A stretch of DNA of 60,823 nucleotides from an uncultured Alphaproteobacteria bacterium (lineage in GTDB: Bacteria; Pseudomonadota; Alphaproteobacteria; SP197). Under the pieces are notes generated by a model, which did not search any database, was not told the origin of the DNA, and was given only the letters and a program-made list of their open reading frames with translations. Made by a program: the position numbers and the translations under genes. Location of the stretch: the NCBI GenBank assembly GCA_938048755.1, contig CALIUG010000218.1:1-60823 (forward strand), read 5' to 3'. Position 1 is the first letter of the stretch; every line of letters starts with the position of its first letter. Shown here one piece after another: positions 25,802 to 47,485 of the stretch.

Positions 25802-26632
25802 GTGACGGAAGCTGACGACTTTTTCGTCCGGTTCTGGGGTGTGCGTGGCAGCATTGTCTGCCCCGGCCCTGCGACCGTGCGATATGGCGGCAACACCTCC
25901 TGCCTGGAGGTGCGTTGTGGCCCGCATCTGTTGATCATGGATGCCGGCACGGGCCTGCGCGGGCTGGATCTCTCCCTGCCCGACGGGCCGCTCGACGCCG
26001 ACCTTTTCATGACCCATACCCATCTCGACCATGTCTGTGGCTGGCCCTATCTCAGCGTGCTCAACCATGCCGAAACGAAACTCACCGCCTGGTCGGGTCA
26101 TCTCAAGGCGCCCCATACCCTGGAAAGCGTGCTCGAACGGTTCCTGAAGGACCCGGTGACACCGGTGACCGAAACCTCGCTCAGGGCCGACATCACCTGG
26201 AAGGCCTTTCAGGTCGGTGACGTGCTGGAACCACGTGATGGCATCACGATCCGCACCACGCCGCTCAACCATCCCAACGGCGCCACCGGCTACAGGATCG
26301 AATATGGCGGCCGCTCGATCTGTTATGTCACCGATACCGAGCATGTCATCGGAGAGCCCGACCGGAACATCCTGGGCCTGATCGAGGGTGCAGACCTGAT
26401 GATCTACGATGCGACCTATACCGATGAGCAGTTCCCCAACTTCGTGACCTGGGGCCATTCGACCTGGGAGGAAGGTGTGCGCCTGTGTGACGCCGCCGGT
26501 GTGGAGACCTTTGTCGTGTTTCATCATGATCCCGGTCATGACGATGACCGCATGGACGCGATTGCTGCCGATCTGGAAGCGGTACGCCCCGGTTCGGTCG
26601 TCGCGCGTGAAGGCATGGTGTTGCGGCCGTGA
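25802..26632 (+). CDS. MBL-fold metallohydrolase (possible cyclic-nucleotide phosphodiesterase)
   Basis: FWGVRGSI, YGGNTSC, DAGTG, THTHLDH, LNHPNG, YVTDTEH, WGHST, FHHDP. Confidence 0.88.
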   Translation: MTEADDFFVRFWGVRGSIVCPGPATVRYGGNTSCLEVRCGPHLLIMDAGTGLRGLDLSLPDGPLDADLFMTHTHLDHVCGWPYLSVLNHAETKLTAWSGHLKAPHTLESVLERFLKDPVTPVTETSLRADITWKAFQVGDVLEPRDGITIRTTPLNHPNGATGYRIEYGGRSICYVTDTEHVIGEPDRNILGLIEGADLMIYDATYTDEQFPNFVTWGHSTWEEGVRLCDAAGVETFVVFHHDPGHDDDRMDAIAADLEAVRPGSVVAREGMVLRP

Positions 26633-27483
26633 GCGGATTGCGCACCAGCCTGCGCCGCATGGGCCTGGGACTTGCCACGGTCACAGGTATGGCCCGGCGC
26701 GGATTCTTCATTCCCTATCGTTATGCCGACACCCTGCCCGGCCCGGGCGCACGCACGCCCTATGAGGCCATCGAGCGGCTGTTTCACGATCATGCCGCTG
26801 TGTTTGCCGCGACCCTCTCAAAGGCCGGTGAGTTTGCCGGTGATCTCCAGGCCATCGGTGCGGATGACCCGGCGCCGGGGCCGCGCTGGAACCAGGACTG
26901 GTTTCCCCGCATGGATGCTGCGATTGCCTATTCCATGGTCCGGGCGGCGGAACCGTCCCGCATCGTCGAAGTGGGATCAGGCCACAGCACGCGCTTCATG
27001 GCGTGCGCCATCCGCGACGGCAGGTTGGTCACGCACCTGACGGCAATCGATCCGGCACCGCGTGCGGCCATCGACACGCTCGAGATCGATATCGTGCGCG
27101 AACCTGTGCACCGGGCCGATCCCTCGGTATTCGCCGCGCTGAAGCCGGGCGATATCCTGTTCATCGATTCCAGCCATATCGCCATGCCCGGTTCGGATGT
27201 CGATCTGCTTTTCAATCGCGTCCTGCCGGAACTGCCGGCCGGCGTGCTGGTCCATATTCACGACATCTTTCTGCCCGATGACTATCCCGCATCCTGGGAT
27301 TGGCGTGGCTACAACGAACAGCTCGCCGTTCTGCCGCTCCTGACTTCGGGTGCATGGCAGCCACTCTTCTCCAGCCGTTACATGGCAACCCGTCAGGCCG
27401 AGACACTGGCGGCAAGCCCGGTCGGCGGGCTGCCCATGCCGACCGGTGCCATGGAAACCAGCCTGTGGCTGCAGCGGCGATGA
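26629..27483 (+). CDS. Class I SAM-dependent methyltransferase (Methyltransf_24-like)
   Basis: IVEVGSGHST, LFIDSSH, VHIHDIFLP, YNEQ. GTGA overlap with the MBL gene. Confidence 0.82.
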   Translation: MSGLRTSLRRMGLGLATVTGMARRGFFIPYRYADTLPGPGARTPYEAIERLFHDHAAVFAATLSKAGEFAGDLQAIGADDPAPGPRWNQDWFPRMDAAIAYSMVRAAEPSRIVEVGSGHSTRFMACAIRDGRLVTHLTAIDPAPRAAIDTLEIDIVREPVHRADPSVFAALKPGDILFIDSSHIAMPGSDVDLLFNRVLPELPAGVLVHIHDIFLPDDYPASWDWRGYNEQLAVLPLLTSGAWQPLFSSRYMATRQAETLAASPVGGLPMPTGAMETSLWLQRR

Positions 27484-27568
27484 GAGATATCACGCCGCCG
27501 ACACGCGGTTATGACGCCGGGTTATCGCCAGGCGCGGTAGACAGGGCGCTCTGCAAAGGACGGCACGC

Positions 27569-28921
27569 GTGAATCTGGCCCGGCGAATCATGACCATGTT
27601 GCTGGGACCGCCTGTCGAGGGCGGCCTTCCCGATCGCGTGCAACGCCAGATCGAGCACGATCAGGCCGAAAGCGAAATCCTGATCGGCTGGGTCCAGATG
27701 GTCGGCATCGTGATGTTCGCGGCGCTCTACAGCGTCGCGCGCAAGACCTTCCCCGACGATGCCATGTTCGAACCGGTGCCCTGGGCGCTGGGTGCCTATT
27801 TCGGGTTCACGCTCCTGCGTCTGGGACTGGCCTATGCCCACCGGCTCCCGGCCTGGATGATCGTCATCTCCATCGTGGTCGACATGGTGGTGCTTCTGGT
27901 GACGATCTGGAGTTTTCACATCCAGTACATGCAGCCGCCGGGCTTTTCGCTCAAGGGCCCGACGATGCTCTATATCTTCGGGCTGATCGCCCTGCGCGCC
28001 CTGCGCTTCGATCCCCGTTATGTCGCCATGGCCGGTGCCGTGGCGGTGGTCGGCTGGCTGGTCATGCTGGCCAACGCCATCCTGATCGATTCTGAACCCA
28101 GCGCGATCACACAGGACTACATCCATTATCTCTCCTCCAGCGACATCCTGATCGGCGGGGAGATGGACAAGATTCTCTCCATCATCCTGGTGACGGCCGT
28201 GCTGGTGATCGCGCTGACTCGTGCGCGCAAACAGCTCATCCGGTCGGTGTCGGAAAGCCAGGCGGCAGAAGACCTCTCGCGTTTTTTCTCGCCCGAGATT
28301 GCCGAGAAGATCACCCACAGCCAGGACATCGTGAAGCCGGGCGAGGGCGTGCTGCGGGAAGCCGCCATCCTGTTCATCGACCTGCGCGGATTTACGGCAC
28401 TCTCCCAGCGTATCGGACCGAACCAGACCGTGGACATGCTCTCGCGTTATCAGCGCGTCGTGGTGCCCGCGGTGCAGGCCCATGGCGGGGCGATCGACAA
28501 GTTCATGGGCGACGGCGTCATGGCAACCTTCGGGGCCGCCAACGCCACCGACACCTTTGCTGCCGATGCGCTTGCCGCCGCGCTGGAAATCGATGCCAAG
28601 ATGACCGCTTGGAACGCGCGCCGCGCCGCGCGCGAACAGCGCCTGCTCGCCTGGGGCATGGGCCTTGCCACCGGCACGGTGGTGTTCGGCGCGGTGGGTG
28701 ACGAAACCCGGCTGGAATACACCGTCATCGGCGATGCCGTGAATCTGGCGGCCAAGCTGGAAAAACACTGCAAGACCCGCGGTGCCCGCCTGTCGGTCAC
28801 CAACGACGCCCTCATCCTGGCCCAGCGCCAGGGCTTTGCCGGTCACGACCTGACGATCGAGGAACTGGTCAGGGTCGAAGGCGTCGCGGTCGACATGGAT
28901 GTCGGCATCCTTCCGGCATAG
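27569..28921 (+). CDS. Membrane-bound class III adenylate/guanylate cyclase
   Basis: Multiple N-terminal TM helices, ILFIDLRGFT, IDKFMGDGVMA, YTVIGDAVNLAAK. Confidence 0.92.
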   Translation: MNLARRIMTMLLGPPVEGGLPDRVQRQIEHDQAESEILIGWVQMVGIVMFAALYSVARKTFPDDAMFEPVPWALGAYFGFTLLRLGLAYAHRLPAWMIVISIVVDMVVLLVTIWSFHIQYMQPPGFSLKGPTMLYIFGLIALRALRFDPRYVAMAGAVAVVGWLVMLANAILIDSEPSAITQDYIHYLSSSDILIGGEMDKILSIILVTAVLVIALTRARKQLIRSVSESQAAEDLSRFFSPEIAEKITHSQDIVKPGEGVLREAAILFIDLRGFTALSQRIGPNQTVDMLSRYQRVVVPAVQAHGGAIDKFMGDGVMATFGAANATDTFAADALAAALEIDAKMTAWNARRAAREQRLLAWGMGLATGTVVFGAVGDETRLEYTVIGDAVNLAAKLEKHCKTRGARLSVTNDALILAQRQGFAGHDLTIEELVRVEGVAVDMDVGILPA

Positions 28922-28930
28922 ACTTGCCCC

Positions 28931-29206: not shown

Positions 29207-29269
29207 TCGCTTCCACGCGCCCGGCCCCCGCCGCTATGGTGGGGCCTGACAATCAAGGCGGAGAAGACC

Positions 29270-30076
29270 ATGCGACTCAAGGGCAAGGTGGCGCTGATCA
29301 CGGGCGGGAATTCAGGCATTGGGCGTGGCATCGTTGCGCGGTTCGTGGCCGAAGGGGCTGCCGTGGCGATCGTTGCGCGGAATGCTGAAAAAGGTCAGGC
29401 GGTGCTGGCGGAGGAACAGGCCAGGGGTGCGGATGCCGCGTTCTTTTCCTGCGACCTTTCGGTCGAGTCCGAGGTCAAGGCGATGGTTGCCGACGTCGTC
29501 GCGCGTTTCGGGAAGATCGACATTCTCATCAACAATGCCGGTGTGGGCGGCCGGCGTGCCGGGGTCGAAGACAGCGACCCGCCGGGCGTGCGCTGGGACA
29601 AGCTGCGCGGCCCCAATCTGGATGCGCCCTGGTTCGCCAGCGCCTATGCCATGCCCCACCTGATTGAAACCAAAGGCAGCATCGTATGCACCTCATCCAC
29701 CGCCACATGGCACGGCAACTGGGGCACCTATGGCATCGCCAAGGCCGGGGTCGAGGCGCTGGTGAGGAGCTTTGCTGCCGAAGGCGGACCCCATGGTGTG
29801 CGCTGCAACGGTGTCTCGCCGGGCTGGATCGCGACCGAACGCGATGCCGAAGCACCTCCATCGGGCGGTGGTGACTGGGCCCTTCCGCCTTCGGCCTTCA
29901 ACCGCATGGGAACCCCTGCAGAGATCGCGGCGGCCGTGCTTTTTCTGGCGAGCGACGAAGCCAGCTTCGTTACCGGCCAGACCCTGATTGTCGATGGCGG
30001 ACTGATGGTGCTCGATTATCCCTCCATGGACATGCTCAAGGACGCGGGTCCGGGCATGATGTCGGCGAACCGCTGA
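29270..30076 (+). CDS. SDR-family NAD(P)-dependent oxidoreductase
   Basis: TGGNSGIG, NNAG, YGIAK, RMGTPAEIA, GQTLIVDGG. Confidence 0.92.
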   Translation: MRLKGKVALITGGNSGIGRGIVARFVAEGAAVAIVARNAEKGQAVLAEEQARGADAAFFSCDLSVESEVKAMVADVVARFGKIDILINNAGVGGRRAGVEDSDPPGVRWDKLRGPNLDAPWFASAYAMPHLIETKGSIVCTSSTATWHGNWGTYGIAKAGVEALVRSFAAEGGPHGVRCNGVSPGWIATERDAEAPPSGGGDWALPPSAFNRMGTPAEIAAAVLFLASDEASFVTGQTLIVDGGLMVLDYPSMDMLKDAGPGMMSANR

Positions 30077-30158: not shown

Positions 30159-30455
30159 ATGAACGACGCCACCATCATCTTTCTTGGTTGCCTTGCCGTG
30201 ATCGCCGTCAGCATCTGGATGGTGTTCTTCAAGGCGCGCATCCCGATTCCTGAGAACCTGCCGCGCGGCGTGACCCGCTTCACGCTGGAGGTGCTCAACG
30301 ACTGGCTGCGGTTGTTCGGCGGCCTGACCGGCTGTGTCGGCCTGCCCATGGCGCTTGCCCTGGCGCTCGCTGTGCTGTGGGGCGGCATGACCCCCTGGCA
30401 CTTCGTCGGCGCCATGCTGATGTTCGTGCTGATGATCGTGTGGCGGATGCGCTAG
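30159..30455 (+). CDS. Small hypothetical membrane protein
   Basis: 98 aa with three hydrophobic segments. Confidence 0.55.
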   Translation: MNDATIIFLGCLAVIAVSIWMVFFKARIPIPENLPRGVTRFTLEVLNDWLRLFGGLTGCVGLPMALALALAVLWGGMTPWHFVGAMLMFVLMIVWRMR

Positions 30456-30472
30456 GCGGCTCTGCCACTTTC

Positions 30473-30629: not shown

Positions 30630-30651
30630 AAAGCAGGGCGTTGCTGTGCTG

Positions 30652-31827
30652 CTACTTGTACGGGTCAGCGGCGTCGCGCAGGCCGTCGCCCAGGAAGTTG
30701 AAGGCCAGCACGACGATGATCACCGGTACCACGGGCAGCATCAGCCAGGGGTAGAGGGCGACGACGTTGATGTTCTGGGCTTCGTTCAGCAGCACGCCCC
30801 AGCTGGTGATCGGCGGGCGCAGGCCCAGGCCCAGGAACGAGAGGGCGGTCTCGCCCAGGATCATGCTGGGGATCGAGAGCGTGGCCGAGGCGATCAGATG
30901 GCTGGTGAAGCTTGGCATCAGATGGCGGAAGATGACGCGCTTGGGTTTGGCGCCCATCAGCACGGCCGCGGTGGCGAAGTCTTCCTCGCGCAGGGCCAGC
31001 AGCTTGGAGCGCACGGCGCGCGCAAGCCCGGTCCAGTCGAACAGGCCCAGAATGATGGTGATGCCGAAATAGACCCAGATCGGACTCCAGGTCACCGGCA
31101 GGCTGGCCGAGAGCGCCATCCACAAGGGCAGTTCGGGGAAGCTGCGGATGATCTCGATCAGGCGCTGCACGGCAGAATCGATCCAGCCGCCGTAATAGCC
31201 CGAGAGACCGCCCAGAATGACCCCCAGCAGGAAGCTGATGGCGATGCCGATCAGGCCGACGGTGAGCGAAATCCGCGCGCCGTAGAGAATGCGCGAAAGC
31301 ATGTCGCGGCCCAGCCTGTCGGTCCCCAGAAGGAACAGCGTGCCGTCCTCTGCCGGGCAGATGATGTGGAAGCTACCTTCGATCATGCCCCAGAATTCGT
31401 AATCATCGCCCAGGCAGAAGAAGCGGATGGGCTGCACCTGCTCCTTGTTGGCCGTGTAGACGCGCTCCAGCGTTTCCATGTCCAGGCGGTAGTCGAAGCC
31501 ATAGACAAACGGGCGCACCAGCTCGCCCTCGTGGAAGATGCGCACCATCTGGGGCGGGGCATAAAGGAAGTCGGTGTTGCGTGAATGCAGGTTGTAGGGT
31601 GCCAGGATCTCCGAGATCAGGATCGATCCGAAGGTCATGATCAGCAGCACGCCCGACCAGACCGCAAGCTTGTGGCGGCGGAACTTCCACCACATCAGCG
31701 TCCACTGGTTGGCCAGATAGAACTTTTCCTGGGCCGGGGTCAGCACCTCGACCGCGTTGGCGTCCCAGGGCTCCTCGTTGACGTAACGCGGGATGTTGCC
31801 CGATGTGTTGGGTGTCGTGTCGGTCAT
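30652..31827 (-). CDS. Peptide/nickel ABC transporter permease (DppC/OppC-like)
   Basis: LLGTDRLGRDMLSR, EAA loop REEDFATAAVLMGA. Confidence 0.92.
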   Translation of the reverse strand: MTDTTPNTSGNIPRYVNEEPWDANAVEVLTPAQEKFYLANQWTLMWWKFRRHKLAVWSGVLLIMTFGSILISEILAPYNLHSRNTDFLYAPPQMVRIFHEGELVRPFVYGFDYRLDMETLERVYTANKEQVQPIRFFCLGDDYEFWGMIEGSFHIICPAEDGTLFLLGTDRLGRDMLSRILYGARISLTVGLIGIAISFLLGVILGGLSGYYGGWIDSAVQRLIEIIRSFPELPLWMALSASLPVTWSPIWVYFGITIILGLFDWTGLARAVRSKLLALREEDFATAAVLMGAKPKRVIFRHLMPSFTSHLIASATLSIPSMILGETALSFLGLGLRPPITSWGVLLNEAQNINVVALYPWLMLPVVPVIIVVLAFNFLGDGLRDAADPYK

Positions 31828-31828: not shown

Positions 31829-32827
31829 TCAGTGCCCCGCTCCCCCGGCGAGCCGGATCCGGGGGTCGAGCACGGCCAGCAGCAGGTCGGAGATCAGCAC
31901 GCCGATCACGGTCAGGAAGGCCAGGCACATCAGGAACGAGCCGGCCAGGAACATGTCCTGGGTCTGGAGCGCGCGCAGCAGGATGGGGCCGGTGGTCGGC
32001 AGCGACAGCACGACCGAAACGATCACCGCGCCGGAAATCACCTGGGGCAGCAGGTTGCCGATATCGGCGATGAAGGGGTTGAGCGCCATGCGCAGCGGGT
32101 ACTTCACCAGCGCCTTGCCGGGCGAAAGGCCCTTGGCGCGTGCCGTCACGACATACTGCTTCTGGAGTTCATCCAGCAGGTTGGCGCGCAGACGCCGGAT
32201 CAGGCCCGCCGTGCCGGACGTGCCGATCACGACAACGGGAATCCACAGATGTTCCAGGATCGAGACGAACTTGCCCCAGGTCCAGGGCTGATCGACATAT
32301 TGCGGGTCCATCAGACCGCCGATCGATGTTCCGAACCAGACATTCGCCAGGAACAGCATGACCAGCGCGAGCAGGAAGTTGGGCGTGGCAAGGCCCAGGA
32401 ACCCCAGCAGGGTGAGCCCGTGATCGCCCCAGGAATACTGGTGGGTGGCCGAATAGACGCCGATCGGGAAGGCCACGATCCAGGTGAAGATGATCGTCGA
32501 ACCAGCCACGATGATGGTGAGGTAGAGGCTCTCGCCGATCACTTCGGCCACCGGCTTGTTGTATTCGAAGCTGATGCCCATGTTGCCTTGCAGCAGATCG
32601 CTCACCCAGATCAGGTATTGCTGCCAGACCGGCTTATCCAGGCCGAATTCCTCGGTCAGCACGGCAACCTGTTCCTTGCAGCTCGATTCCCCCTGGGCTT
32701 CACACTCGGCGATCATGGTCGAGAGGAAGTCGCCGGGCGGTAGCTGAATGATGATGAACGTGATCAGGCTGATGCCGATCAGCGTGGGCACCATCAGCAT
32801 GATGCGGTGTGCGAGATAACCGATCAT
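31829..32827 (-). CDS. Peptide/nickel ABC transporter permease (DppB/OppB-like)
   Basis: FGLDKPVWQQY, YVVTARAKGL, SGAVIV. Confidence 0.92.
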   Translation of the reverse strand: MIGYLAHRIMLMVPTLIGISLITFIIIQLPPGDFLSTMIAECEAQGESSCKEQVAVLTEEFGLDKPVWQQYLIWVSDLLQGNMGISFEYNKPVAEVIGESLYLTIIVAGSTIIFTWIVAFPIGVYSATHQYSWGDHGLTLLGFLGLATPNFLLALVMLFLANVWFGTSIGGLMDPQYVDQPWTWGKFVSILEHLWIPVVVIGTSGTAGLIRRLRANLLDELQKQYVVTARAKGLSPGKALVKYPLRMALNPFIADIGNLLPQVISGAVIVSVVLSLPTTGPILLRALQTQDMFLAGSFLMCLAFLTVIGVLISDLLLAVLDPRIRLAGGAGH

Positions 32828-33135
32828 GCCGCTTCTCCGGCGGCGAACAGAGGACATTCGAACGAAAGGCAGGAACGATTCTGGTGCCCGATCAAGGTCG
32901 GGACGTCAACGGCTACCCAGAGGACGTACTGTTGCCAGATCGGCTTCTCGAGGCGGTGTGCGACCTGGATGATTTCGATCTGTGCCGCGCAGTTCGATTC
33001 ACCGTGCGACTCGCATTCCGCAATCATTTTCTCAACCGGATCATCGCTGGCAAGCCTGATCGCAAACGCGATCAGGCTGACCCCGACCATGGTTGTTGCT
33101 GCGCGCGTCAGACGCTTTGCGATGGTTCGGATCAT
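32824..33135 (-). CDS. 103-aa stand-alone paralog of the DppB N-terminal domain
   Basis: MIAECESHGESNC...LEKPIWQQYVLWV vs permease MIAECEAQGESSC...LDKPVWQQYLIWV. ATGA overlaps at both ends. Confidence 0.7.
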   Translation of the reverse strand: MIRTIAKRLTRAATTMVGVSLIAFAIRLASDDPVEKMIAECESHGESNCAAQIEIIQVAHRLEKPIWQQYVLWVAVDVPTLIGHQNRSCLSFECPLFAAGEAA

Positions 33136-37473: not shown

Positions 37474-38222
37474 AACACGTCGGACGCATCAAGCCACCGC
37501 GCCCGGGGATGATCGCGCACGAATGCGACAAATCTGTCAACAAAGGAACGCGTTTGGGCATCATGCACCCGATGATGGGTCATCATGCCGGTCGGTTCAC
37601 CGGCATCGGCCCCACCGCATCTGCGTGCCCGCAGGTGGTGGACGGCAGCCCTCAGGCACGGCGATTCGCCCGCAAACTCGCGCCCCGCCTTCCAGTTGAT
37701 AAGGTCGAGATGGACATTGGTCTGATGCAATCCCGACCGGATTGCCGTCTTGCGCGGCCCCAGGGTGGAAAGGCCCGTGAACCCCGCCTTGCCGAGCGCG
37801 ACCTCCACAGCCGGGTCGATTCGATTCCAGGGTGGCACCATGACCGGCAGGAATCGGGCGCCCAGGGTCGATTCCAGATGTGCCCTGCCGTTTGCCATCG
37901 CGTCAGCCAGGCCCGCAGACAGAGCCTCGTCACACAATTCCATCTTGCGCCGGTCGCCCTGTGTCCGGTCGGTGTGGCTGACACCATGCTGCAGGACGCG
38001 GCAGCCCGAATCGGCGGCCAGGGCGTCAGCAGATCGTGCCTCCAGCCAATCGGGCACCGTGGCCAGGGCCAGGGGAACGTCCAGTGCCTGACGCTGCGCC
38101 AGAAAACCATCCAGAAGGCCATCATCGGGCCCGGCATCGTCATCACGCCACCAGAACGTCGCGGGCTGGCTCTCGCTATCCCACTGGTCCAGTTCGTCGC
38201 TCAGGGTTTCCCAGTCAGACAT
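37449..38222 (-). CDS. Polysaccharide deacetylase-like (NodB/CE4-type) protein
   Basis: WWRDDDA, LQHGVSH, VPPWNRI, MTHH. Confidence 0.8.
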   Translation of the reverse strand: MSDWETLSDELDQWDSESQPATFWWRDDDAGPDDGLLDGFLAQRQALDVPLALATVPDWLEARSADALAADSGCRVLQHGVSHTDRTQGDRRKMELCDEALSAGLADAMANGRAHLESTLGARFLPVMVPPWNRIDPAVEVALGKAGFTGLSTLGPRKTAIRSGLHQTNVHLDLINWKAGREFAGESPCLRAAVHHLRARRCGGADAGEPTGMMTHHRVHDAQTRSFVDRFVAFVRDHPRARWLDASDVFCSAGSPS

Positions 38223-39369: not shown

Positions 39370-39962
39370 GACGGCGGCCCCAACCGATGCACGGCCGGTT
39401 CGCCCAGAGACGGTGACCCGTCTTGCCGCAGTTCCAGCATCAGCGCGCCGTCACGGGGCAGTTTCAGGGGCGGTGGGCCCATCATGTCCCAACCGGTAGC
39501 GAGCGTCAGGGCCACGCGCATCACGCCGCGGTGGGTCACTACCAGCGTATCGGTTCCCGCCCGGGCAACATCGGTCAGAAACCGCGCCAGCCGTCCGGCC
39601 ACCTCGCGGGGGCTCTCGCCACCATCGGGGCGGAAATCGAGGCCCCGGGCCTCGTTGGCGGCCATCGTCGCGCCACCGCGGCTGCGCAGGGCAGGCAGAG
39701 TTTCCCCCGCCCAGCTTCCCCAATCCATCTCGATCAGGCGTGCGTCGCTGCGGCCATGGTCCAGACCCAGAAGCCTGGCGGTATCGCGGGTGCGTTGCAG
39801 GGGGCTGGTCACGACGTCCCAGGATTGCCAGTCCCTGGGTACCCGCCAGTCCGCGACCATGCGCCTGCCGGCTTCGGACAGGGGCGTGTCGGTGCGGCCT
39901 TGAATGCGGCCTGCCTCGTTCCAGGTCGTGGGCGCGTGGCGGATCATGGCAAGCCGGGTCAT
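39366..39962 (-). CDS. Histidine phosphatase family protein
   Basis: IRHAPT, TSPLQR, LIEMDWG, VTHRG. Confidence 0.88.
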   Translation of the reverse strand: MTRLAMIRHAPTTWNEAGRIQGRTDTPLSEAGRRMVADWRVPRDWQSWDVVTSPLQRTRDTARLLGLDHGRSDARLIEMDWGSWAGETLPALRSRGGATMAANEARGLDFRPDGGESPREVAGRLARFLTDVARAGTDTLVVTHRGVMRVALTLATGWDMMGPPPLKLPRDGALMLELRQDGSPSLGEPAVHRLGPPS

Positions 39963-41077
39963 CGGCTGTGCCTTGCCAGCGTGATCGCGCGATCCAGCGC
40001 CAGAGCGGCACTGGCCATGCTGTGGCGCACCGCGACATGATCGGCGGCTGCCGCACCCATGGCGGCGCGGCGCAGGGGGTCATCGATCAGGCGTTGCACG
40101 CCCGCAGCAAAGGCCCCTGGGTCACCTTCCTTCACCAACAGCGCGGTCTTGCCGTCCCGGGCAATCTCGGGAACGCCGCGCGCACGTCCGGCAACCAGGG
40201 GCAGGCCTGCTGCCTGGGCGCCCAGCAGGGCCATGCCATAGGCCTCGTTGATCGCGGGCCACAGGCAGAGGTCACAGCCGACCAGCATGCCCGGAAGGCT
40301 GCGCGGGCTGATCTGTCCGGCAAACCGGGCGCGCCCCTTCAGCAGGGCTTCCACCTCAGCCCGGCAGGGTCCGTCACCGATCACCAGCAGGTCCATGGCC
40401 TCAGGCGCGATGTGTTCCAGGGCCTCGGCCAGGACGCGATAGGACGCCATCTTGTCGCCATCGCGCATCATCGCGACGACCACGGCCAGGGGCCTGTCGG
40501 GTGACACGCCGAACCGTTCCGTCAGACGCCTGCGCGCGGGGCCGGGCTTCTGACGCTGATAAGGTGCAACATCGACAAAGGGGGTCAGGGGTACCAGGCG
40601 TTCACCTGGAATGCCGGCGCGTTTGAGACCGTCGGCATCTTCGGACGTCACGGGCATCAGTGCATCGGCGCGCGCCAGAGCTGCCAGGGAACGGGCATAA
40701 CCATCCGACCAGGCTCCCTTGCGCTGCTTGGGTGCGATCGAGGGTTCGGCCACCACATAGGGAAGCCCCAGGGCGTCGGCCAGGCGCGGACCCAGGTGAT
40801 CCGGCGCCTTGTGATAGAGATGATAGGTGAACCACAGGTCGGGCGGCGCATCGCACCAGCGCTGTTCCAGCCCCTGCGCCTGTTTCAGACCTTCTGCGGC
40901 AATCGCGCCCTGACGATCGCTGTCCCCGGCCTCGTCATAGGCCCGCAGGGTGGAAGCCAGCACGACCTCATGCCCCATGGATTCCAGGGTTTTCACGATC
41001 AGGCGCGCGACCGTGCGGTCGCCGGACGGCACACGATGGGTCGGGGCTTTCAGGGGCGCATAAAAGGCGATCCTCAT
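39959..41077 (-). CDS. GT4-family glycosyltransferase
   Basis: EAYGMALLGAQAAGLP, RGVPEI. Confidence 0.88.
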   Translation of the reverse strand: MRIAFYAPLKAPTHRVPSGDRTVARLIVKTLESMGHEVVLASTLRAYDEAGDSDRQGAIAAEGLKQAQGLEQRWCDAPPDLWFTYHLYHKAPDHLGPRLADALGLPYVVAEPSIAPKQRKGAWSDGYARSLAALARADALMPVTSEDADGLKRAGIPGERLVPLTPFVDVAPYQRQKPGPARRRLTERFGVSPDRPLAVVVAMMRDGDKMASYRVLAEALEHIAPEAMDLLVIGDGPCRAEVEALLKGRARFAGQISPRSLPGMLVGCDLCLWPAINEAYGMALLGAQAAGLPLVAGRARGVPEIARDGKTALLVKEGDPGAFAAGVQRLIDDPLRRAAMGAAAADHVAVRHSMASAALALDRAITLARHSR

Positions 41078-41122: not shown

Positions 41123-42373
41123 CTAGTTCAGATCGTCCGATAACCCGAATCGCCGCGCCAGATCGTCGATGCCGCCGGTCATGGAAAACTTGGTGCGCAC
41201 GCGCACCTCTCCGGCCTTGCCCAGACGTTCGCGCAAATCAGGATCGGTGATGGCACGCTGCAGGCTTGCCGCCAGTGCCTTCGGGTCACCCGGAGCAGAG
41301 AGCAGGCCGTTGACGTCGTGGGCGATCAGTTCGGGCACGGCGGAAACCTCGGTCGCAACAACGGCAAGACCCTGGCTCTGGGCTTCCATCAAGACGTTGG
41401 GCAGGCCGTCGCGATCACCATCCCCGGCAATCTTGGAGGCCAGCACGAAGAGGTCGCTGGCGTGATAGGCCTGCAGCACTGCCGTCTGGGGTTGGGAGCC
41501 CAGCCACGTGATGCGCTCCGCGATTCCGGCTTTCCGTGCCTGCTCCTGCAGCGCATCACGCAACGCTCCGCCGCCGATATGGGTGAGATGCCAGTGCAGG
41601 TCGCCGGGCAACCGGGCCAGCGCGTCGATCAGGTCGTCATACCCCTTCTTGGGCACGGCGCGCCCGACCGAGACCAGGGCAACCGGGTTGGCAGGATCGC
41701 TGCCGTCGCGCTTCTCCTTCCTTTCCGGGGGTGGCGGCCAGCGTTTCAGATCAAGGCCGTGATAAACCAGAGAGACCCGGTCATCGGGTGCCAGTGCGGC
41801 CAGATGGCCACGGTTGCTTGCGGTGCAGGTGACCAGCCACTGGCAGTCGCCCAGCTTCTCGGAAAGTTCCCAGTCGGGCGAGGTATAGATGTCCTTGGCA
41901 TGGGCCGAGGCGCTCCAGGGCAGGCCCGTCATCATCGCGGCGTAACGGGTCACCGAAGACGGCGTGTGCAGGAAATGGGCGTGGAGCTGGCGCACATGGG
42001 GTGCGGTCTCGCAGGCCAGGACACAGGCCTGACCGAACCGGCGAATGCGGTTGGCGGTGCGGTCACGTTTGAGATCGCGCCACCACTGACGCCATGCCGC
42101 AGCGTAACCGGGCAGGCGCCGGGCCTGCCACCAGGCGCGCAGCACCCGCAGGGGCTCCTGATAGAGGTATTCGGGAAGATAGCTGACCGGTGCGGTGATC
42201 TCGTCATGGACGGGATGGGTTGTCCTGTCCGTGGGATGACGCAGCGAAACGATCCGGATCGGCAGGCCCCGGCGCTGCAGTGCCAGAATCTCCTGGGCAA
42301 TGAAGGTTTCCGAAAGACGCGGGTATCCCTTCAGAATGAACGCAACCGGTGCGTCGCCGTCTGGCGCTGTCAC
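41123..42373 (-). CDS. GT4-family glycosyltransferase
   Basis: YPRLSETFI, HAHF, KKGY, RDGLPNVLMEA. Confidence 0.9.
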   Translation of the reverse strand: MTAPDGDAPVAFILKGYPRLSETFIAQEILALQRRGLPIRIVSLRHPTDRTTHPVHDEITAPVSYLPEYLYQEPLRVLRAWWQARRLPGYAAAWRQWWRDLKRDRTANRIRRFGQACVLACETAPHVRQLHAHFLHTPSSVTRYAAMMTGLPWSASAHAKDIYTSPDWELSEKLGDCQWLVTCTASNRGHLAALAPDDRVSLVYHGLDLKRWPPPPERKEKRDGSDPANPVALVSVGRAVPKKGYDDLIDALARLPGDLHWHLTHIGGGALRDALQEQARKAGIAERITWLGSQPQTAVLQAYHASDLFVLASKIAGDGDRDGLPNVLMEAQSQGLAVVATEVSAVPELIAHDVNGLLSAPGDPKALAASLQRAITDPDLRERLGKAGEVRVRTKFSMTGGIDDLARRFGLSDDLN

Positions 42374-42388: not shown

Positions 42389-43660
42389 TCAGCGGGCTGT
42401 CGTGCGGGTGCCGTTGTCGCCCGCCACGGTCAGCAGGTTCTGGCGTTTTTCCTGGCCCAGCTTCAGGGCGGTGCGTCCTTCGGCCAGATGCATGGCAACC
42501 AGCCGGTTGACGTTCTCAAGGCCGTCCAGCAGCCCGGGAACAACGACCTGGCTGGGCCGGCGTTGCTGCCTGAGCTGACGAATCGCAGTCGCCATGGCCT
42601 CGGGTTTCTCTGCCATGTCCTCGGTCAGCATGGAAACCAGGCCCAGTTCCTGGGCGCGACTGGCGCGGATCAGCTGTTCCATTCGCGGTACCTGGCGCGG
42701 CACGATCAGCGCGGGTTTGTCGAAGGAGAGAATTTCGCAGAACGTGTTGTAGCCGCCCATGGCGACGACGCCTGACGCACGCGCCATCAGGGTTTCCAGA
42801 TGGGCATTGAAAGTAATGGCCGTGACATGGTCCAGTCTGTCGACCCGATCCTGAAACGCAGTCTTGACCTCGGGCTGCATGAACGGGCCAAAGACGATCA
42901 GGGCCGGAATGGTCGGGGCGCGTTTGCACTCATAGGCATTGAGCATCCAGTCGACGAGCAGGTCGCCGTCGCCGCCGCCGCCTGTGGTGACCAGGACAAA
43001 GGGCTCCTCGATGCCGTCGGGCAGTCCGTCATCATGCAGGTTCTGCGGCACGGACCGTTCGAGATAGCCGGTATAGACCATCTTGCGGCGCACCGATTGC
43101 GGCACGTCGATCTCTTCGAGCGGATCGTGGATCTGCGGCAGGCCATAGACCCAGATGTCGTCATAAAGGTCGCGCAGGGCAGGCATTGCTTTCTTGCGCC
43201 GCCATTCGGCCTTCAGCAGGGCGGGATCGTCCATCACGTCGCGCAGACCCAGAATGATGCGGGTGCCGCGTTTCTTGAGCATTTCGATGGTTTCGCGCAT
43301 CTCGCCGCGCAGACCCAGCGGTTCCTTGTCGACCAGCAGAATGTCGGGATCGAAGATATCTGCGGTGTGTTTCATGATCGATTCACGCATCGCCATGGTC
43401 TGGTCGGTATCAAGCAGCAGGTTGAGCGAGGTGTATTCGCCGTTTCGCAGCTTGATGACGCCGGGAACCCGCACGAAATCAACGCGCGCGCGGAAATCGA
43501 AGCTGCCGATGATGGGTGAGCCCGAAAGGATCAGGACGGTCAGATCCTCGACCGATCCCACCATGGAATGCGCGATGGCTCTGCACCGTCGCAGATGTCC
43601 CAGTCCAAAGCTGTCGTGACTGTAAATCAGGACGCGCGGACGCGTTTTTTTGCTGGCCAT
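42389..43660 (-). CDS. GT-B glycosyltransferase, paralog of 38215-39369
   Basis: YSHDSFGLGHLRR, TGGGGDG, AMGGYNT, EQLIRA. Start at ATG 43660. Confidence 0.85.
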   Translation of the reverse strand: MASKKTRPRVLIYSHDSFGLGHLRRCRAIAHSMVGSVEDLTVLILSGSPIIGSFDFRARVDFVRVPGVIKLRNGEYTSLNLLLDTDQTMAMRESIMKHTADIFDPDILLVDKEPLGLRGEMRETIEMLKKRGTRIILGLRDVMDDPALLKAEWRRKKAMPALRDLYDDIWVYGLPQIHDPLEEIDVPQSVRRKMVYTGYLERSVPQNLHDDGLPDGIEEPFVLVTTGGGGDGDLLVDWMLNAYECKRAPTIPALIVFGPFMQPEVKTAFQDRVDRLDHVTAITFNAHLETLMARASGVVAMGGYNTFCEILSFDKPALIVPRQVPRMEQLIRASRAQELGLVSMLTEDMAEKPEAMATAIRQLRQQRRPSQVVVPGLLDGLENVNRLVAMHLAEGRTALKLGQEKRQNLLTVAGDNGTRTTAR

Positions 43661-43808
43661 GGCAGTCCCCGCCGCTTGCCCCTGGAGCAAACTATGACAC
43701 AGCGGGCCATTTCGCGAAAGCGGGGCCGAAAACTGCGCATTCCTCAAACCGTGTTCTTGGGCTAAGGTCGTCGTTCGTTGGGGGTTCTGGGAGTCGCTGT
43801 TCGTCCGC

Positions 43809-46523
43809 ATGGAACGCAGCATCTACAAGTTTATCTTTCGCTTTTCCAAGCGCGAGCAGGTGTTCATCCTTTTGTTCACCGTGCTTTCGCTGCCGTTTTA
43901 CTATGTCTCGCTCGATATCCCCAAACTGATCGTCAACAACGTGCTTTCCGATCAGGTGACCGAGGCTGATGCCTCCGTTGCGAACCTGGATCTGGGCATG
44001 GTTGCCGCAGCCGAAGACATCCGGTCCTTCTCGCTGTTCGGGTATGACATTCTCGATATGGAGCGCCTGACGCTGCTGGGCATCTATTGCGGGATGTTCC
44101 TGGGGCTGGTCCTGATCAACGGTGGCTTCAAGTATTTCATCAACGTCTACAAGGGTCTGCTGGGCGAACGCATGTTGCGCCGGCTGCGCTATCAGCTGTT
44201 CAGCCGCATCATGCGCTTTCCCCTGCCCCATTTCCGCCGGGTCAGTTCCGGTGAGCTGATCCCCATGGTGACCCAGGAGGTCGAACCCCTGGGCGGTTTC
44301 ATCGGGGATGCTCTGGCGCTGCCGTTTTACCAGGGCGGTCTGCTGATCACCGCGCTTATCTTCATCTTCATGCAGGACTTCTGGATGGGGCTTGCCTCAA
44401 TCTCGCTTTATCCCATGCAGGGGTGGCTGATCCCCAAGCTGCAGCGCAAGGTAAACCTGCTGGGCAAGGAGCGCGTGAAGGAAGTGCGCAAGGTCTCCGA
44501 GCGGATTGCCGAGACCGTGCAGTCGGCCGAAGAGATGCACGCCAACGGCATGGCGCGCTGGGAGCTGGCCGAATTCACCTCCCGCATGGGCCGGATCTTT
44601 GAGATTCGCTATGCGATCTACAACAAGAAGTTCTTCATCAAGTTCCTGAACAACTTCCTGGCCCAGCTCACACCGTTTTTCTTCTTTGCCATCGGCGGTT
44701 ACTTCGTCATTCAGGGTTCGCTTTCGCTGGGTGGTCTGGTTGCCGTGCTGGCCGCCTACAAGGATCTCCAGCCGCCCTGGAAGGAACTGCTCAACCACTA
44801 CCAGATCCGCGAGGACGCCAAGATCAAATACGATCAGGTCGTCGCCCAGTTCGCGCCCGCCGGCATGCGCGAAGAGGAGGTCGTCGTCGGCGAGGTGGCG
44901 CCCGAACCCTTCAACGGCGCGCTGACGACGAGCAATCTGCGTTATGACGAGGATGGCGAGGTCCTGATCGACGGCTTCAATGTCGAGATCGCGCCGGGCC
45001 AGCACATCGCTCTGGTCGGTGGGCCAACCAGTTCCAAGGACCGCGCGGTCATGCTGCTCGCGCACCTGCTCGATCCCGCCAGTGGCAAGTTGCGTTACGG
45101 TGATGCCGAAGCCCAGACCATGCCCGAGGTCGTGACGGGCACGCAGATCGGCTTTGTCGGACCAGCCACCTCGCTGTTCTCCGCATCCCTGATGGATAAC
45201 GTGATCTACGGTCTGCGCCAGGCGCCCAGGGCGCCGCGTGATGCCGGTGATGACAAGGCCAGGAAGGAAACGGAACGCCAGTTGTCCGAGGCAGCCAAGA
45301 CCGCCAACAGCGCCGATGATGCCTTCGCAGACTGGATCGATCTGGAGCGGGCAGGTGCGGCCAACCGCGAAGAACTGATCGAAGCGGTGCGCCATGCGCT
45401 TTCCGTCGCTGACATGGAAGACGACGTCTATCAGCTCGGTCTGCGCGGCAGGCTTGACCCTGAAACACGGCCCGAGGCCGCCAAACGTCTTCTGGAAGCG
45501 CGCAGCCTTCTGGAATCGCGCCTGAAGGAAGACAGCTACCGTGGTCTGGTCGAGCCGTTCGACCGGGATGCCTACAACACCAATGCCACGGTCGGTGAAA
45601 ATCTGCTGTTCGGCACGCCAGTGGGCGAGGATTTCGACCTCGATCGCCTGCCCGAGAACGAATATGTCATGAGCGTGCTGGCCAAGGTCGGACTGGTCGA
45701 CGACTTCCTCTCGATCGGTCACGAAGTCGCCCAGACCATGGTTGAACTGTTCGCCGACCTGCCGCCCGACCATGAGTATTTCGGCCAGTTCTCCTTCATC
45801 TCGCTTGATGATCTGCCGGAATTCCAGGCGCTGCTGCGCAAGGTTGAGCGCGACGGTCTGGAAGAGCTTGAAGAGAACGAGCGCCTCATGTTCATGGCGC
45901 TGCCGTTCAAGATGGCGCCTGCCCGGCACCGACTTGGCCTGATCGACAATTCGATGCAGGAGCGTCTGCTGGAGGCACGCCGCGCCTTTGCCGAGGACCT
46001 GCCCGAAGCGCTCAAGGGCTCGGTCGAGTTCTTTGATCACGATCTCTACAACACGGCTTCCTCGCTCCAGGACAACATCCTGTTCGGCAAGCTTGCCTAT
46101 GGCCGTGCCCAGGCCCAGACCAAGATCGGCGAACTGATTTCCGACGTGATCGAAAGCCTGGAGTTGCGCAGCACGGTGGTCGAGGTCGGCCTTGATTTTG
46201 AGGTCGGTATCGGCGGCGCAAGACTGTCCTCGGCACAGCGCCAGAAGACCGCCATTGCCCGTGCTGTTCTCAAACGCCCACAAATGATTGTTCTCAGTGA
46301 GGCAACAGCGGCATTGGATGGGTCGGCCCAGACCACCATATTGAAGAATATCCGGGAAGAGTTCTCTGGCCGTACCGTAATCTGGGCAATGCACCGTCCA
46401 AGCCAGGCCAAGGATTTTGATGAAGTTCTTGTCATGGCCGATGGCAAGATCGTCGAAAAGGGGACGTTCGACGACCTGATGGAGAATAAGGCGGTTCTCG
46501 CGGATCTGATTGGCGCGGAGTAA
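43809..46523 (+). CDS. ABC exporter-type TMD-NBD fusion (904 aa) with a large NBD insertion and degenerate ATPase motifs
   Basis: ABC TMD, Walker A region GGPTSSKD, signature LSSAQRQK, Walker B IVLSEAT, H-loop WAMH. Confidence 0.85.
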   Translation: MERSIYKFIFRFSKREQVFILLFTVLSLPFYYVSLDIPKLIVNNVLSDQVTEADASVANLDLGMVAAAEDIRSFSLFGYDILDMERLTLLGIYCGMFLGLVLINGGFKYFINVYKGLLGERMLRRLRYQLFSRIMRFPLPHFRRVSSGELIPMVTQEVEPLGGFIGDALALPFYQGGLLITALIFIFMQDFWMGLASISLYPMQGWLIPKLQRKVNLLGKERVKEVRKVSERIAETVQSAEEMHANGMARWELAEFTSRMGRIFEIRYAIYNKKFFIKFLNNFLAQLTPFFFFAIGGYFVIQGSLSLGGLVAVLAAYKDLQPPWKELLNHYQIREDAKIKYDQVVAQFAPAGMREEEVVVGEVAPEPFNGALTTSNLRYDEDGEVLIDGFNVEIAPGQHIALVGGPTSSKDRAVMLLAHLLDPASGKLRYGDAEAQTMPEVVTGTQIGFVGPATSLFSASLMDNVIYGLRQAPRAPRDAGDDKARKETERQLSEAAKTANSADDAFADWIDLERAGAANREELIEAVRHALSVADMEDDVYQLGLRGRLDPETRPEAAKRLLEARSLLESRLKEDSYRGLVEPFDRDAYNTNATVGENLLFGTPVGEDFDLDRLPENEYVMSVLAKVGLVDDFLSIGHEVAQTMVELFADLPPDHEYFGQFSFISLDDLPEFQALLRKVERDGLEELEENERLMFMALPFKMAPARHRLGLIDNSMQERLLEARRAFAEDLPEALKGSVEFFDHDLYNTASSLQDNILFGKLAYGRAQAQTKIGELISDVIESLELRSTVVEVGLDFEVGIGGARLSSAQRQKTAIARAVLKRPQMIVLSEATAALDGSAQTTILKNIREEFSGRTVIWAMHRPSQAKDFDEVLVMADGKIVEKGTFDDLMENKAVLADLIGAE

Positions 46524-46547
46524 CACGATGACTACGGAGGCACGGCC

Positions 46548-47000
46548 ATGAGCCTGCAACAAGATGTCGAACTGATGCGCAACATTCCCCTGTTCGCCAA
46601 GATCGAACCCAGCAAGCTGAAGCTGCTGGCGTTCACGGCCGAACGGCTGACCTTTGGCCAGGGCGATCTTGTCTGCAAACAGGGCGATGAAGGTGATTCG
46701 GCCTACATCATCATCGACGGCGAGGCCGACGTCATCGTCGACACCGCCAACGGCGAGGTCACGGTCGCAACGCTGAAGAAGAACGACTTTCTGGGCGAAA
46801 CCGCCATTCTCTGTGACGTGCCGCGTACCGCCACGGTCAAGGCAAGGAGCGATCTTGAGACCCTGATGATTTCCAAGGATCTCTTTTTCCAGCTGGTCGG
46901 CCAGTTCCCGTCCATGTCGATCGAGATCATGCGTGAGCTCGCACGTCGCGTGGAGCGCACCACCGTGCAACTGCGCGAAGCGGTCTCCCAGCAGGCATGA
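46548..47000 (+). CDS. Stand-alone cyclic-nucleotide-binding domain protein
   Basis: QGDEGDSAYII, FLGETAILCDVPRTATV. No HTH. Confidence 0.9.
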   Translation: MSLQQDVELMRNIPLFAKIEPSKLKLLAFTAERLTFGQGDLVCKQGDEGDSAYIIIDGEADVIVDTANGEVTVATLKKNDFLGETAILCDVPRTATVKARSDLETLMISKDLFFQLVGQFPSMSIEIMRELARRVERTTVQLREAVSQQA

Positions 47001-47485
47001 GCCGTCTCGACAGCGTCATCCGCAGGCTGGAGGCCCAGCGTGCCTGTCTGGGCCGTGCTTGCGATCTGATTGCCGATCTTGACGGGCCCGTCCTGGAACT
47101 GGGGCTGGGTAACGGGCGCACTTATGATCACCTGCGTGAGATCCTGCCATCGCGCGCGATCTACTGCTTCGACCGCCAGATTGCCGCGCACCCCGACTGC
47201 ATTCCCGATGACGATCACATGTTTCTGGGTGACCTCAGCGAAACCCTGCCCATGGCCGTGGATCGCCTGGGCCGGAGTGCTGTTCTTGCCCATGTCGATA
47301 TCGGTTCGGGTGATGAAGAGGCCAGCCGCGCCCTGGGTGTCTGGCTGGCCGATGAACTTCCCGCGCTTCTTGCGCCAGGCGCATTGGTGGTGAGCGATCA
47401 GCCGGTGCCGCACGCTGCATGGCAGACCCTGGAGCTGCCCGCCGGCGTGGCTTCGGGACGGTATTTCATGCAGCGGGTTGCCTGA
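46997..47485 (+). CDS. Small class I SAM-dependent methyltransferase-like protein
   Basis: VLELGLGNGRTYDHLR. ATGA overlap with the cNMP gene. Confidence 0.8.
   Translation: MSRLDSVIRRLEAQRACLGRACDLIADLDGPVLELGLGNGRTYDHLREILPSRAIYCFDRQIAAHPDCIPDDDHMFLGDLSETLPMAVDRLGRSAVLAHVDIGSGDEEASRALGVWLADELPALLAPGALVVSDQPVPHAAWQTLELPAGVASGRYFMQRVA

Follow-up and report, generated by a model that had tools for sequence, protein, structure and literature searches.

The window analysed herein is a stretch of 60,823 nucleotides (60.8 kb), one whole contig (CALIUG010000218.1 of NCBI GenBank assembly GCA_938048755.1) of a 4.16-Mb metagenome-assembled alphaproteobacterial genome whose nearest named relatives are 'Rhodospirillaceae/Alphaproteobacteria bacterium' metagenome-assembled genomes (MAGs). 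Between positions 25802 and 47485 it carries a locus of glycosyltransferases (GTs), transporters, methyltransferases and cyclic-nucleotide proteins, which is a widespread layout of a system already known by name and phenotype from Sinorhizobium meliloti, the phazolicin-protecting polysaccharide (PPP) cluster. The gene calls rest on the listing of open reading frames (ORFs), codon-position GC, and Pfam and NCBIfam scans. Three transcription units were resolved in this way, and every gene class named in an earlier note on this DNA was found at the position given there.

The minus-strand unit comprises 12 genes that run from 43660 to 30652 and are translationally coupled, the junctions being 4-nt overlaps or gaps of at most 45 nt. 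The first operon gene, GTb1 (42389-43660), encodes a GT-B enzyme with a Glyco_tran_28_C domain (Pfam). It is followed by two GT4 glycosyltransferases, GT4a (41123-42373; Pfam) and GT4b (39959-41077; Pfam, NCBIfam and PDB), a histidine phosphatase of the His_Phos_1 family (HisP, 39366-39962; Pfam and synteny), whose gene overlaps its neighbours by 4 nt at either side, and GTb2 (38215-39369; Pfam), a second GT-B enzyme with Glyco_tran_28_C. Next come a CE4/DUF2334-type deacetylase-like protein (37449-38222; family motifs and Pfam matches of orthologues) and a small membrane protein with a PH-like domain (36910-37473, true start probably near 37416; AlphaFold2 (AF2) model and fold search). The unit ends with the genes of an Opp/Dpp-type importer, which are a GsiA/YejF-like ATPase with two fused nucleotide-binding domains (NBDs) (35033-36913; Pfam and NCBIfam), a family-5 substrate-binding protein (SBP, SBP_bac_5) of ~630 aa (33132-35036; Pfam and PDB matches), a 103-aa ORF and two BPD_transp_1 permeases (31829-32857 and 30652-31827; Pfam).

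Two plus-strand units flank this operon. One diverges from GTb1 across an intergenic region at 43661-43808 and begins with an atypical ATP-binding cassette (ABC) exporter of 904 aa with ABC_membrane and partial ABC_tran domains (43809-46523; Pfam, NCBIfam, AF2 and fold search). A stand-alone cNMP_binding protein of 150 aa (CNB, 46548-47000; Pfam) lies 24 nt 3' of the ABC gene, and its gene overlaps by 4 nt that of a Methyltransf_17 S-adenosylmethionine (SAM)-dependent methyltransferase (MT17, 46997-47485; Pfam and PDB 3IHT). The other unit converges on the importer and consists of an MBL-fold hydrolase of the Lactamase_B_2 family with an HxHxDH motif (25802-26632; Pfam, NCBIfam and synteny), a Methyltransf_24 methyltransferase (MT24, 26629-27483; Pfam) whose gene overlaps the former by 4 nt and, after 85 nt, a membrane-anchored class III cyclase with a Guanylate_cyc domain (27569-28921; Pfam, alignment and hydropathy). 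The cyclase was assigned to the plus strand because the larger minus-strand ORF that covers it has no family match and the wrong third-position GC (GC3) pattern.

The conservation of this arrangement was assessed across relatives. GTb1 was found as a single-copy gene with 50-94% identity in 39 of 61 close and distant relatives, and at one copy per genome in 70 of 201 genomes sampled evenly across the class. A pattern scan of named genomes returned >595 loci, including those of Azospirillum, Dongia, Inquilinus, Sneathiella, Tistlia, Stellaceae, Kiloniellaceae and many Burkholderiales MAGs. All window proteins were then mapped onto the 33-40 kb around GTb1 in 30 genomes, mostly of different alphaproteobacterial families. 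With few exceptions the order kept is MBL, MT24, (cyclase), importer, membrane protein, deacetylase, GTb2, HisP, GT4b, GT4a, GTb1, diverging ABC, CNB and MT17, and the same order was seen in most of 80 named loci. The arrangement is conserved far beyond chance. In one genome (G057), the genes for the importer, HisP and the membrane protein have been lost, those for the GTs, deacetylase, ABC and CNB proteins remain, and MBL-MT24 lie immediately next to the deacetylase gene. The Burkholderiales members of the 80 named loci possess the GT block and the importer. As a separate observation, ten Escherichia plasmids (hits H83 and H84; cattle faeces) bear a 'glycosyl transferase family 28' gene 35% identical to GTb1.

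Travin et al. (mBio, 2023; PMC10128002) report that nine genes between smb21252 and smb21271 on pSymB of S. meliloti 1021 are needed for phazolicin tolerance, and provisionally call the presumed product PPP, the name by which smb21252-smb21271 is now known. We compared the window with S. meliloti SM11 pSymB by tblastn. The four GTs matched within one locus, at 41% (GT4b, SMb21252), 50% (GTb1, RedA/SMb21264), 55% (GT4a, RedB/SMb21265) and 37% (GTb2, SMb21266) identity, and the deacetylase (SMb21253) and ABC (SMb21269) orthologues, at 30% and 37% identity, occupy the same relative positions. On SM11 pSymB, the published SMb21252 primers fall exactly on the GT4b orthologue and the SMb21265 primers on the GT4a orthologue, and the gene spacing and coordinates in Data Set S1 of PMC10128002 match the mapped locus. 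Orthology of the two loci is thus very probable. In S. meliloti, SMb21253 is followed by the MBL gene and then by a DUF3095 gene, SMb21256 is a nucleotide-sugar dehydrogenase and is followed by a cyclase gene, SMb21259 is a lyase and is followed by the four importer genes, SMb21269 is followed by the CNB gene, and SMb21271 is an FkbM-type methyltransferase. The two loci thereby share four GTs, the deacetylase, MBL, four importer genes, the atypical ABC protein, CNB and a class III cyclase within the cluster. The window adds HisP, the PH-domain membrane protein, MT17 and MT24, and has its biosynthetic and importer genes in a single operon, whereas the dehydrogenase SMb21256, the PF14099 lyase SMb21259, DUF3095 and the FkbM-type methyltransferase have no counterpart in the window. 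Judging from the comparison, the dehydrogenase and the lyase appear to be Rhizobiaceae-specific additions.

The cluster in S. meliloti is known by phenotype only. In transposon sequencing (Tn-seq), phazolicin depletes insertions in the GTs, deacetylase, dehydrogenase, lyase, ABC gene and SMb21271 ~16- to 40-fold, and insertions in the unlinked adenylate cyclase gene cyaA are also depleted (PMC10128002). Two GT mutants show an 8-fold lower minimum inhibitory concentration of phazolicin (PMC10128002). Seven of the nine PPP genes are induced during Myxococcus predation (PMC10315480). In Rhizobium leguminosarum 3841, the nucleotide-sugar dehydrogenase pRL110056, a gene type without a window counterpart, scores in nodule and root-colonisation screens (bioRxiv 10.1101/2020.05.07.082560; PMC11103875). 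Our literature search found no paper that identifies the PPP product or discusses the CNB-ABC pairing. The statement of the earlier note that no characterised pathway has this composition is therefore outdated, inasmuch as the orthologous S. meliloti cluster was named in 2023, and it still holds for product and mechanism, which are uncharacterised there.

The ABC protein consists of a six-helix exporter transmembrane domain followed by an NBD. Its AF2 model (pLDDT 81.6) best matches P-glycoprotein, TmrAB, TM287/288 and PCAT1, which is the type IV exporter fold, and its best NCBIfam match is MsbA, with scores far below the family cut-offs. The canonical exporter motif set (Walker A GxxGxGK[ST], Q-loop Gln, LSGGQ, Walker B hhhhDE and H-loop His) was not found intact across 82 family members. 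The Walker B Asp is kept in four of the 82 (mostly replaced by Asn or Ser) and the Walker A Ser/Thr in six (mostly Asp or Glu); the Walker A Lys is present in 57, the catalytic Glu in 56 and the H-loop His in 42, the first Q-loop position is mostly Gly, and the signature reads L[ST]xAQ. In addition, ~300 extra residues between Walker A and the signature form three tandem copies of the stretch from the Q-loop to a '[DE]N[IL]x[FY]G' segment. Identity between residues 561-602 and 720-760 is 48% (E = 3e-9), and copy one matches copy three with E = 0.001.

The CNB protein consists of a cNMP_binding domain alone (PF00027, 73.9 bits), and Pfam revealed no helix-turn-helix (HTH) or other output domain on its 150 aa. 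In 83 orthologues, the phosphate-binding cassette G-E...R-T-A retains Gly in 82, Glu in 75, and Arg and Ala in all 83. The cassette is thus intact, with nearly invariant cNMP-contacting residues, and ligand binding is predicted. Wherever enough sequence of an alphaproteobacterial locus is available, the CNB gene almost always lies directly 3' of the ABC gene, and the pair stays together in rearranged loci. Furthermore, a single polypeptide of ABC_membrane-ABC_tran-cNMP_binding architecture (1034 aa) is encoded at L090, an ABC-CNB fusion of 1186 aa was recognised at L067 by ORF analysis, and a Rhodospirillaceae MAG (L044, 15858-19208) encodes an ABC-CNB fusion with an additional C-terminal GGDEF domain (1117 aa), which hints at cAMP/c-di-GMP cross-talk at the exporter. 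A fourth fusion is probably present at L103. Because the two proteins form one polypeptide in three loci, a physical and functional partnership is supported, and the CNB protein is, on this comparative evidence, a dedicated partner of the ABC protein. It probably acts on the ABC protein, and cAMP is somewhat favoured over cGMP as its ligand.

The cyclase scores 53 bits against PF00211 (cut-off, 21.9 bits) and has at least four hydrophobic segments. Nine orthologues conserve its metal-binding Asp residues (FIDLRGF, GDG) as well as a Lys (in DKFxGDG) and a Thr (in EYTVIGD). In class III cyclases a Lys/Thr pair denotes adenine specificity, and the residues of the window protein are those typical of adenylate cyclases, which predicts cAMP as its product. 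Orthologues with 47-87% identity occupy the slot between MT24 and the permease gene in eight of the 30 other genomes (G018, G025, G033, G095, G104, G141, G189 and G222) and in Tistlia (L077). A PF00211 gene lies ≤20 kb from GTb1 in at least 10 of 31 carrier genomes, the window's included, against 3.5 expected (Poisson P = 0.003). The locus cyclase is the single cyclase of genome G018; the window genome has 12 class III cyclase domains, and related carriers have 1 to 38. Cyclases of other architecture were found inside the rearranged clusters of R. johnstonii 3841 and S. meliloti, and in Burkholderiales a cyclase is divergent from GTb1 in four of nine loci with enough upstream sequence. In two Burkholderiales loci a class III cyclase takes the place of the ABC/CNB pair upstream of GTb1: at L049 (5536-9285) it has a fused 2Fe-2S ferredoxin domain and stands beside a cNMP-gated ion channel and a PP-loop protein, and at L070 (7536-9808) it adjoins an ATP-grasp-like gene.

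Near-full-length MT24 orthologues were detected in 47 of the 201 genomes, and 46 of these 47 also carry GTb1 (Fisher P = 2e-26, phylogeny not corrected for). Since the two co-occur in several genomes even on different contigs or hundreds of kb apart, this evidence of a link is independent of synteny. The MBL gene travels with MT24, and its S. meliloti orthologue sits beside the deacetylase gene SMb21253. The cyclase/MBL block co-occurs with the GT block in other genomes, contrary to the lack of co-occurrence by which the earlier note would have been refuted. The same note had assigned the MBL protein to a signalling triad as a phosphodiesterase. This role is not supported, because the protein scores 40.9 bits against the 400-bit cut-off of the NCBIfam cNMP-phosphodiesterase model NF041851 (RNase Z models score equal or better), and because its gene is translationally coupled to MT24 and follows the GT genes, not the cyclase, in its distribution. 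Its PDB relatives are RNase Z and ElaC only, and both MBL and MT24 occur in loci without a cyclase. MT17 is retained in the rearranged Rhizobium and Shinella loci.

Family comparisons place the biosynthetic enzymes broadly. GTb1 and GTb2 are paralogues with 28% identity, and both match in Pfam the GT28 C-terminal domain only, a domain common to MurG and lipid glycosyltransferases; a profile search with GTb1 against PDB sequences found no solved relative. Both GT4s are nearest to MshA, PimB' and BshA over the donor-binding half only, with maltose-1-phosphate synthase also among the closest solved relatives of GT4b, and both weakly match PimB' and a GlcNAc-phosphatidylglycerol synthase. Against NCBIfam, the GT4 scores were 64 bits for MshA (cut-off, 462) and 59 bits for BshA (cut-off, 274). 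For the deacetylase, the call made in the earlier note stands on the family and not on the protein itself: the window protein has no Pfam match of its own, but 12 of 33 orthologues match DUF2334 and five match Polysacc_deac_1, and the family has the invariant motifs WWRDDD, HGxxH, PPWNR and HH (DD...HxxxH...H), which correspond to the NodB-type Asp-Asp, His-x3-His and later His residues. The NCBI PGAP pipeline names the Shinella orthologue 'polysaccharide deacetylase family protein'. HisP, whose gene is intact in the window, is absent from Rhizobiaceae, G057 and some Burkholderiales loci by synteny; it is an accessory part, dispensable in evolution. The small membrane protein (pLDDT 87.8) comprises a transmembrane hairpin and a PH-like domain; its best fold matches are PH domains, weak ones (E ≥ 0.026), and four of 29 orthologues match bPH_6.

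No part of a Wzx/Wzy or Wzm/Wzt/KpsMT pathway (priming transferase, flippase/polymerase, ABC-2 permease or PCP/OPX) was found among the products of 21.5-52 kb, and genes for a priming transferase, Wzx/Wzy, an ABC-2 permease or outer-membrane export are likewise absent from the set conserved across the 30 genomes. A mycothiol- or bacillithiol-like pathway, with a GT4 and a deacetylase beside gshB, was considered and rejected, because the deacetylase is CE4/DUF2334-like and not PIG-L (LmbE), a Cys ligase is missing, and the gshB adjacency is not conserved.

The solved relatives of the importer SBP are, in order of the PDB search, 5IPW (an undescribed structural-genomics protein), SPH1118 (pectin oligosaccharides) and an alpha-galactoside-binding protein; they are not peptide binders. 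The full-length similarities have E values of 7e-68 for SPH1118 and 3e-24 for the alpha-galactoside binder. The SBP_bac_5 family match is clear, and the score is far below every cut-off of the NCBIfam models for peptide, nickel and glutathione SBPs. By its relatives, the SBP is assigned to the oligosaccharide-binding branch of family 5. It resembles Sphingomonas SPH1118 and rhizobial AgpA (cluster C of the Opp/Dpp proteins) in its size of ~630 aa and full-length similarity, and the fused double-NBD ATPase resembles YejF and GsiA of YejABEF and GsiABCD. Unlike these systems, the window importer sits in a biosynthetic operon and not in a catabolic one. That it takes up the product of the locus is a tentative proposal, somewhat less likely than the contrary.

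Two groups of known systems resemble the exporter side of the locus. In the cyclic beta-1,2-glucan system of Rhizobiaceae (NdvA/ChvA and NdvB), a cytoplasmic glycan is likewise exported to the periplasm by an MsbA-like half-transporter and has roles in the envelope and in host interaction. The window ABC protein matches the glucan-exporter models with scores far below the cut-offs. NdvB is one giant GT84 synthase, whereas the window has four separate GT-B enzymes and adds the non-canonical NBD with its triplicated Q-loop segment, the CNB partner and a co-transcribed importer. In cyanobacterial ABC exporters with cNMP-binding proteins (TIGR03896 'bacteriocin-type transport-associated protein', NHLP-type and HepA family), a CNB protein is genetically attached to a type IV exporter, as in the window, and the window CNB and ABC proteins give sub-threshold matches to these models. 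The cyanobacterial systems, to our knowledge mechanistically uncharacterised, differ in having a presumed peptide cargo (for HepA, heterocyst envelope polysaccharide), a two-domain CNB protein and canonical NBDs.

Four Leloir-type GT-B enzymes, all cytoplasmic, are encoded together with a CE4/DUF2334 deacetylase that depends on a metal, with two to three methyltransferases that use SAM, and with an MsbA-like ABC protein and the importer. Considering this composition, we interpret the locus as an envelope-glycan system of the PPP type, in the widespread 'ancestral' layout, with cAMP-licensed ABC export and recapture by the importer, a reading to which we give a probability of roughly 0.55. The GT-B enzymes would assemble a defined glycan in the cytoplasm, partly de-N-acetylated and methylated. 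We lean towards a short oligosaccharide, which may be primed on a phosphorylated acceptor and then dephosphorylated by HisP; whether the product is soluble rather than lipid-linked is an even call. The atypical ABC protein would carry the glycan across the inner membrane when licensed by cAMP bound to the CNB partner, the cAMP being supplied, in response to a cue from the envelope or the environment, by the adjacent membrane adenylate cyclase. The product would form a protective barrier in the periplasm or envelope, and the co-transcribed importer might recapture it or its fragments. The MBL hydrolase/MT24 pair would tailor the glycan rather than degrade cNMP. The earlier proposal of a glycan-building and transport system tied to cyclic-nucleotide signalling is in this respect upheld by the co-occurrence of the cyclase/MBL and GT blocks elsewhere and by the CNB-ABC fusions of some relatives.

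Several observations weigh against this interpretation. Since the product has been isolated from no organism, the size, composition and location of the glycan are inferred. A priming or lipid-carrier enzyme, a polymerase and an outer-membrane export gene were absent from the locus in Pfam scans. With the Walker B Asp and Walker A Ser/Thr missing from its NBD, the ABC protein may be no pump at all. The ABC/CNB/MT17 unit was not found within 10 kb in the Burkholderiales loci of the 80-locus set, and many alphaproteobacterial loci have no nearby cyclase. The importer, MBL and CNB genes are not among the affected genes in the portion of the S. meliloti Tn-seq table covered here (PMC10128002). In the GTb1/ABC intergenic region, CRP (TGTGA-N6-TCACA) and Clr (HGTYHCNNNNGRWACW) boxes were found in none of 67 loci, and CRP-type transcriptional control at this promoter has no support. 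Finally, gene-order conservation among related lineages is partly inherited and not independently selected.

The intergenic region does contain a family-conserved motif, AACTATGACACAG (AACTATG(A/G)CACAG), at ~43690-43702, which recurs at the same position in genomes of the same family (L014, L016, L020 and L035) and, as a conserved sequence, could be an operator or promoter element.

Four other explanations were weighed. The product might be a glycolipid or lipid-linked oligosaccharide, made by GT28-like enzymes that glycosylate diacylglycerol, phosphatidylglycerol or polyprenol, with the ABC protein as flippase. The headgroup, bearing de-N-acetylated, cationic GlcN, would then alter surface charge and permeability, and a barrier phenotype against a cationic peptide fits this picture (PMC10128002), as do the MsbA/PglK-type fold and MsbA match of the ABC protein, the GT28 C-terminal domain of both GT-B paralogues, the weak GT4 matches to PimB' and GlcNAc-phosphatidylglycerol synthase, and the membrane-anchored PH-domain protein in the operon. 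We regard it as unlikely nonetheless: hydropathy predicted no membrane segment in any of the GTs, all family matches are far below cut-offs, HisP is better suited to a soluble phospho-acceptor, and a lipid-anchored product sits badly with an oligosaccharide-type importer that uses a periplasmic binding protein. The cyclic-nucleotide genes, for their part, might be loosely connected to the rest, with cAMP acting, if at all, through transcription or an unrelated target and CNB not gating the ABC protein. The strict adjacency and co-movement of the ABC and CNB genes in rearranged loci, their fusion in at least three loci, the 150-aa CNB protein without an output domain and the enrichment of cyclases at the locus speak against such a loose link, and we consider it distinctly improbable, although many loci have no adjacent cyclase, alphaproteobacterial genomes contain up to 38 cyclase genes, one Burkholderiales locus pairs its cyclase with a cNMP-gated ion channel as a self-contained module, and the S. 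meliloti cyclase with a phenotype is the unlinked cyaA (PMC10128002).

Co-transcription of the importer with the enzymes, SBP relatives that bind chitin, pectin and alpha-galactoside oligosaccharides, a CE4-type deacetylase typical of chitooligosaccharide use, and the polysaccharide lyase beside the importer in S. meliloti could be taken together as signs of a salvage or catabolic locus, in which an environmental or cell-wall oligosaccharide is imported and processed in the cytoplasm by the deacetylase and by the GT-Bs acting as transglycosylases or phosphorylases. This is very unlikely in view of four Leloir-type GTs with no glycoside hydrolase or kinase and of an exporter-fold ABC protein that is the invariant partner in Alphaproteobacteria. 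Moreover, G057 lacks the importer yet keeps the GTs, deacetylase, ABC and CNB genes, and the S. meliloti phenotype lies in the GTs and the ABC gene, with the importer genes missing from the portion of the affected-gene table covered here. The earlier note had also considered a 'sugar-phosphate solute', that is, a small glycoside osmolyte made by a GT and phosphatase pair. GT4b does adjoin HisP with overlapping stop and start codons (4 nt), and its nearest solved relatives (MshA, BshA and maltose-1-phosphate synthase) use small phosphorylated or acidic acceptors. All matches to solute-synthase models (GpgS/GpgP, SPS/SPP and OtsAB type) were far below cut-off. The osmolyte reading is not supported, because HisP is missing from the Rhizobiaceae and G057 versions, because no known solute pathway comprises as much as four GTs, a deacetylase, methyltransferases and an exporter, and because the genetics of the S. 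meliloti orthologues indicate an envelope barrier and not osmotolerance (PMC10128002); its probability is accordingly minimal.

A bolder version of the envelope-glycan interpretation takes the unusual NBD at face value. On this view the ABC protein, whose NBD has systematically lost the Mg/ATP-hydrolysis residues, would not be a usual ATP-driven pump but a valve or exporter for the glycan, mechanistically of a new type and licensed by cAMP, and the locus would run a regulated cycle of making, exporting and recapturing the glycan. The triplicated Q-loop/helical segment would serve as a docking platform for the CNB partner, and the cycle would carry a defined oligosaccharide, methylated and in part de-N-acetylated, that shapes the permeability of the envelope in a large proportion of Alpha- and Betaproteobacteria. 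We hold this version to be speculative, with the odds clearly against it.

About one in three of the alphaproteobacterial families sampled carries the locus (examples are Azospirillum, Rhizobium, Sinorhizobium and marine lineages), as do Burkholderiales. No other non-transporter determinant in S. meliloti contributes as strongly to tolerance of a peptide antibiotic that targets the ribosome, and if the product of the locus were identified, proteobacterial cell biology would gain a new glycan of the envelope or periplasm. The pairing of CNB with ABC, which is a fusion in some species, together with an NBD whose non-canonical form is conserved, provides a case in which post-translational control of a bacterial ABC exporter by a cyclic nucleotide can be tested; we know of no described instance of such control. 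Three features appear to be undescribed: the comparative evidence that cyclic nucleotides control the exporter directly, the conserved non-canonical NBD with its Q-loop segment in triplicate, and the membership of MBL/MT24 in a PPP-type locus.

Other genes near the locus or shared with its relatives were examined as candidate parts. An OmpR-type response regulator (21890-22579) is single-copy in 98 of the 201 genomes; because 41 of these 98 have no GT locus and the gene is often far from the locus, it is considered a syntenic neighbour. A short-chain dehydrogenase/reductase (SDR; 29270-30076) was found at that position in only one other genome and was rejected. The PF14099 lyase and DUF3095 were rejected as general parts, being unlinked outside Rhizobiaceae. 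PF14099 is present in two of the 31 carrier genomes, and in the window's genome it lies on another contig. DUF3095 genes lie inside the Rhizobiaceae clusters (L115, R. johnstonii 3841 pRL11; L116:4313-5524, S. meliloti SM11); elsewhere DUF3095 occurs in eight of the 31 genomes, never adjacent, and the window genome has one on contig C2.

Scans for promoters and terminators in the window gave site numbers no higher than in shuffled sequence. The 103-aa minus-strand ORF (32824-33135) occupies a 275-nt gap between the SBP and permease genes, has a match in one relative only and falls outside the conserved set; in other genomes the SBP and permease genes abut without this gap, and the ORF is a lineage-specific insertion or partial duplication. 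A small hydrophobic ORF (30161-30455) lies inside the 575-nt gap between the SDR gene and the last permease gene. At 22996-25100 there are two long overlapping minus-strand ORFs. One of them, of 528 aa, is probably shorter than listed because its APH-family match covers the downstream part only, and the MFS transporter (23889-25100) is kept beside the response regulator in relatives.

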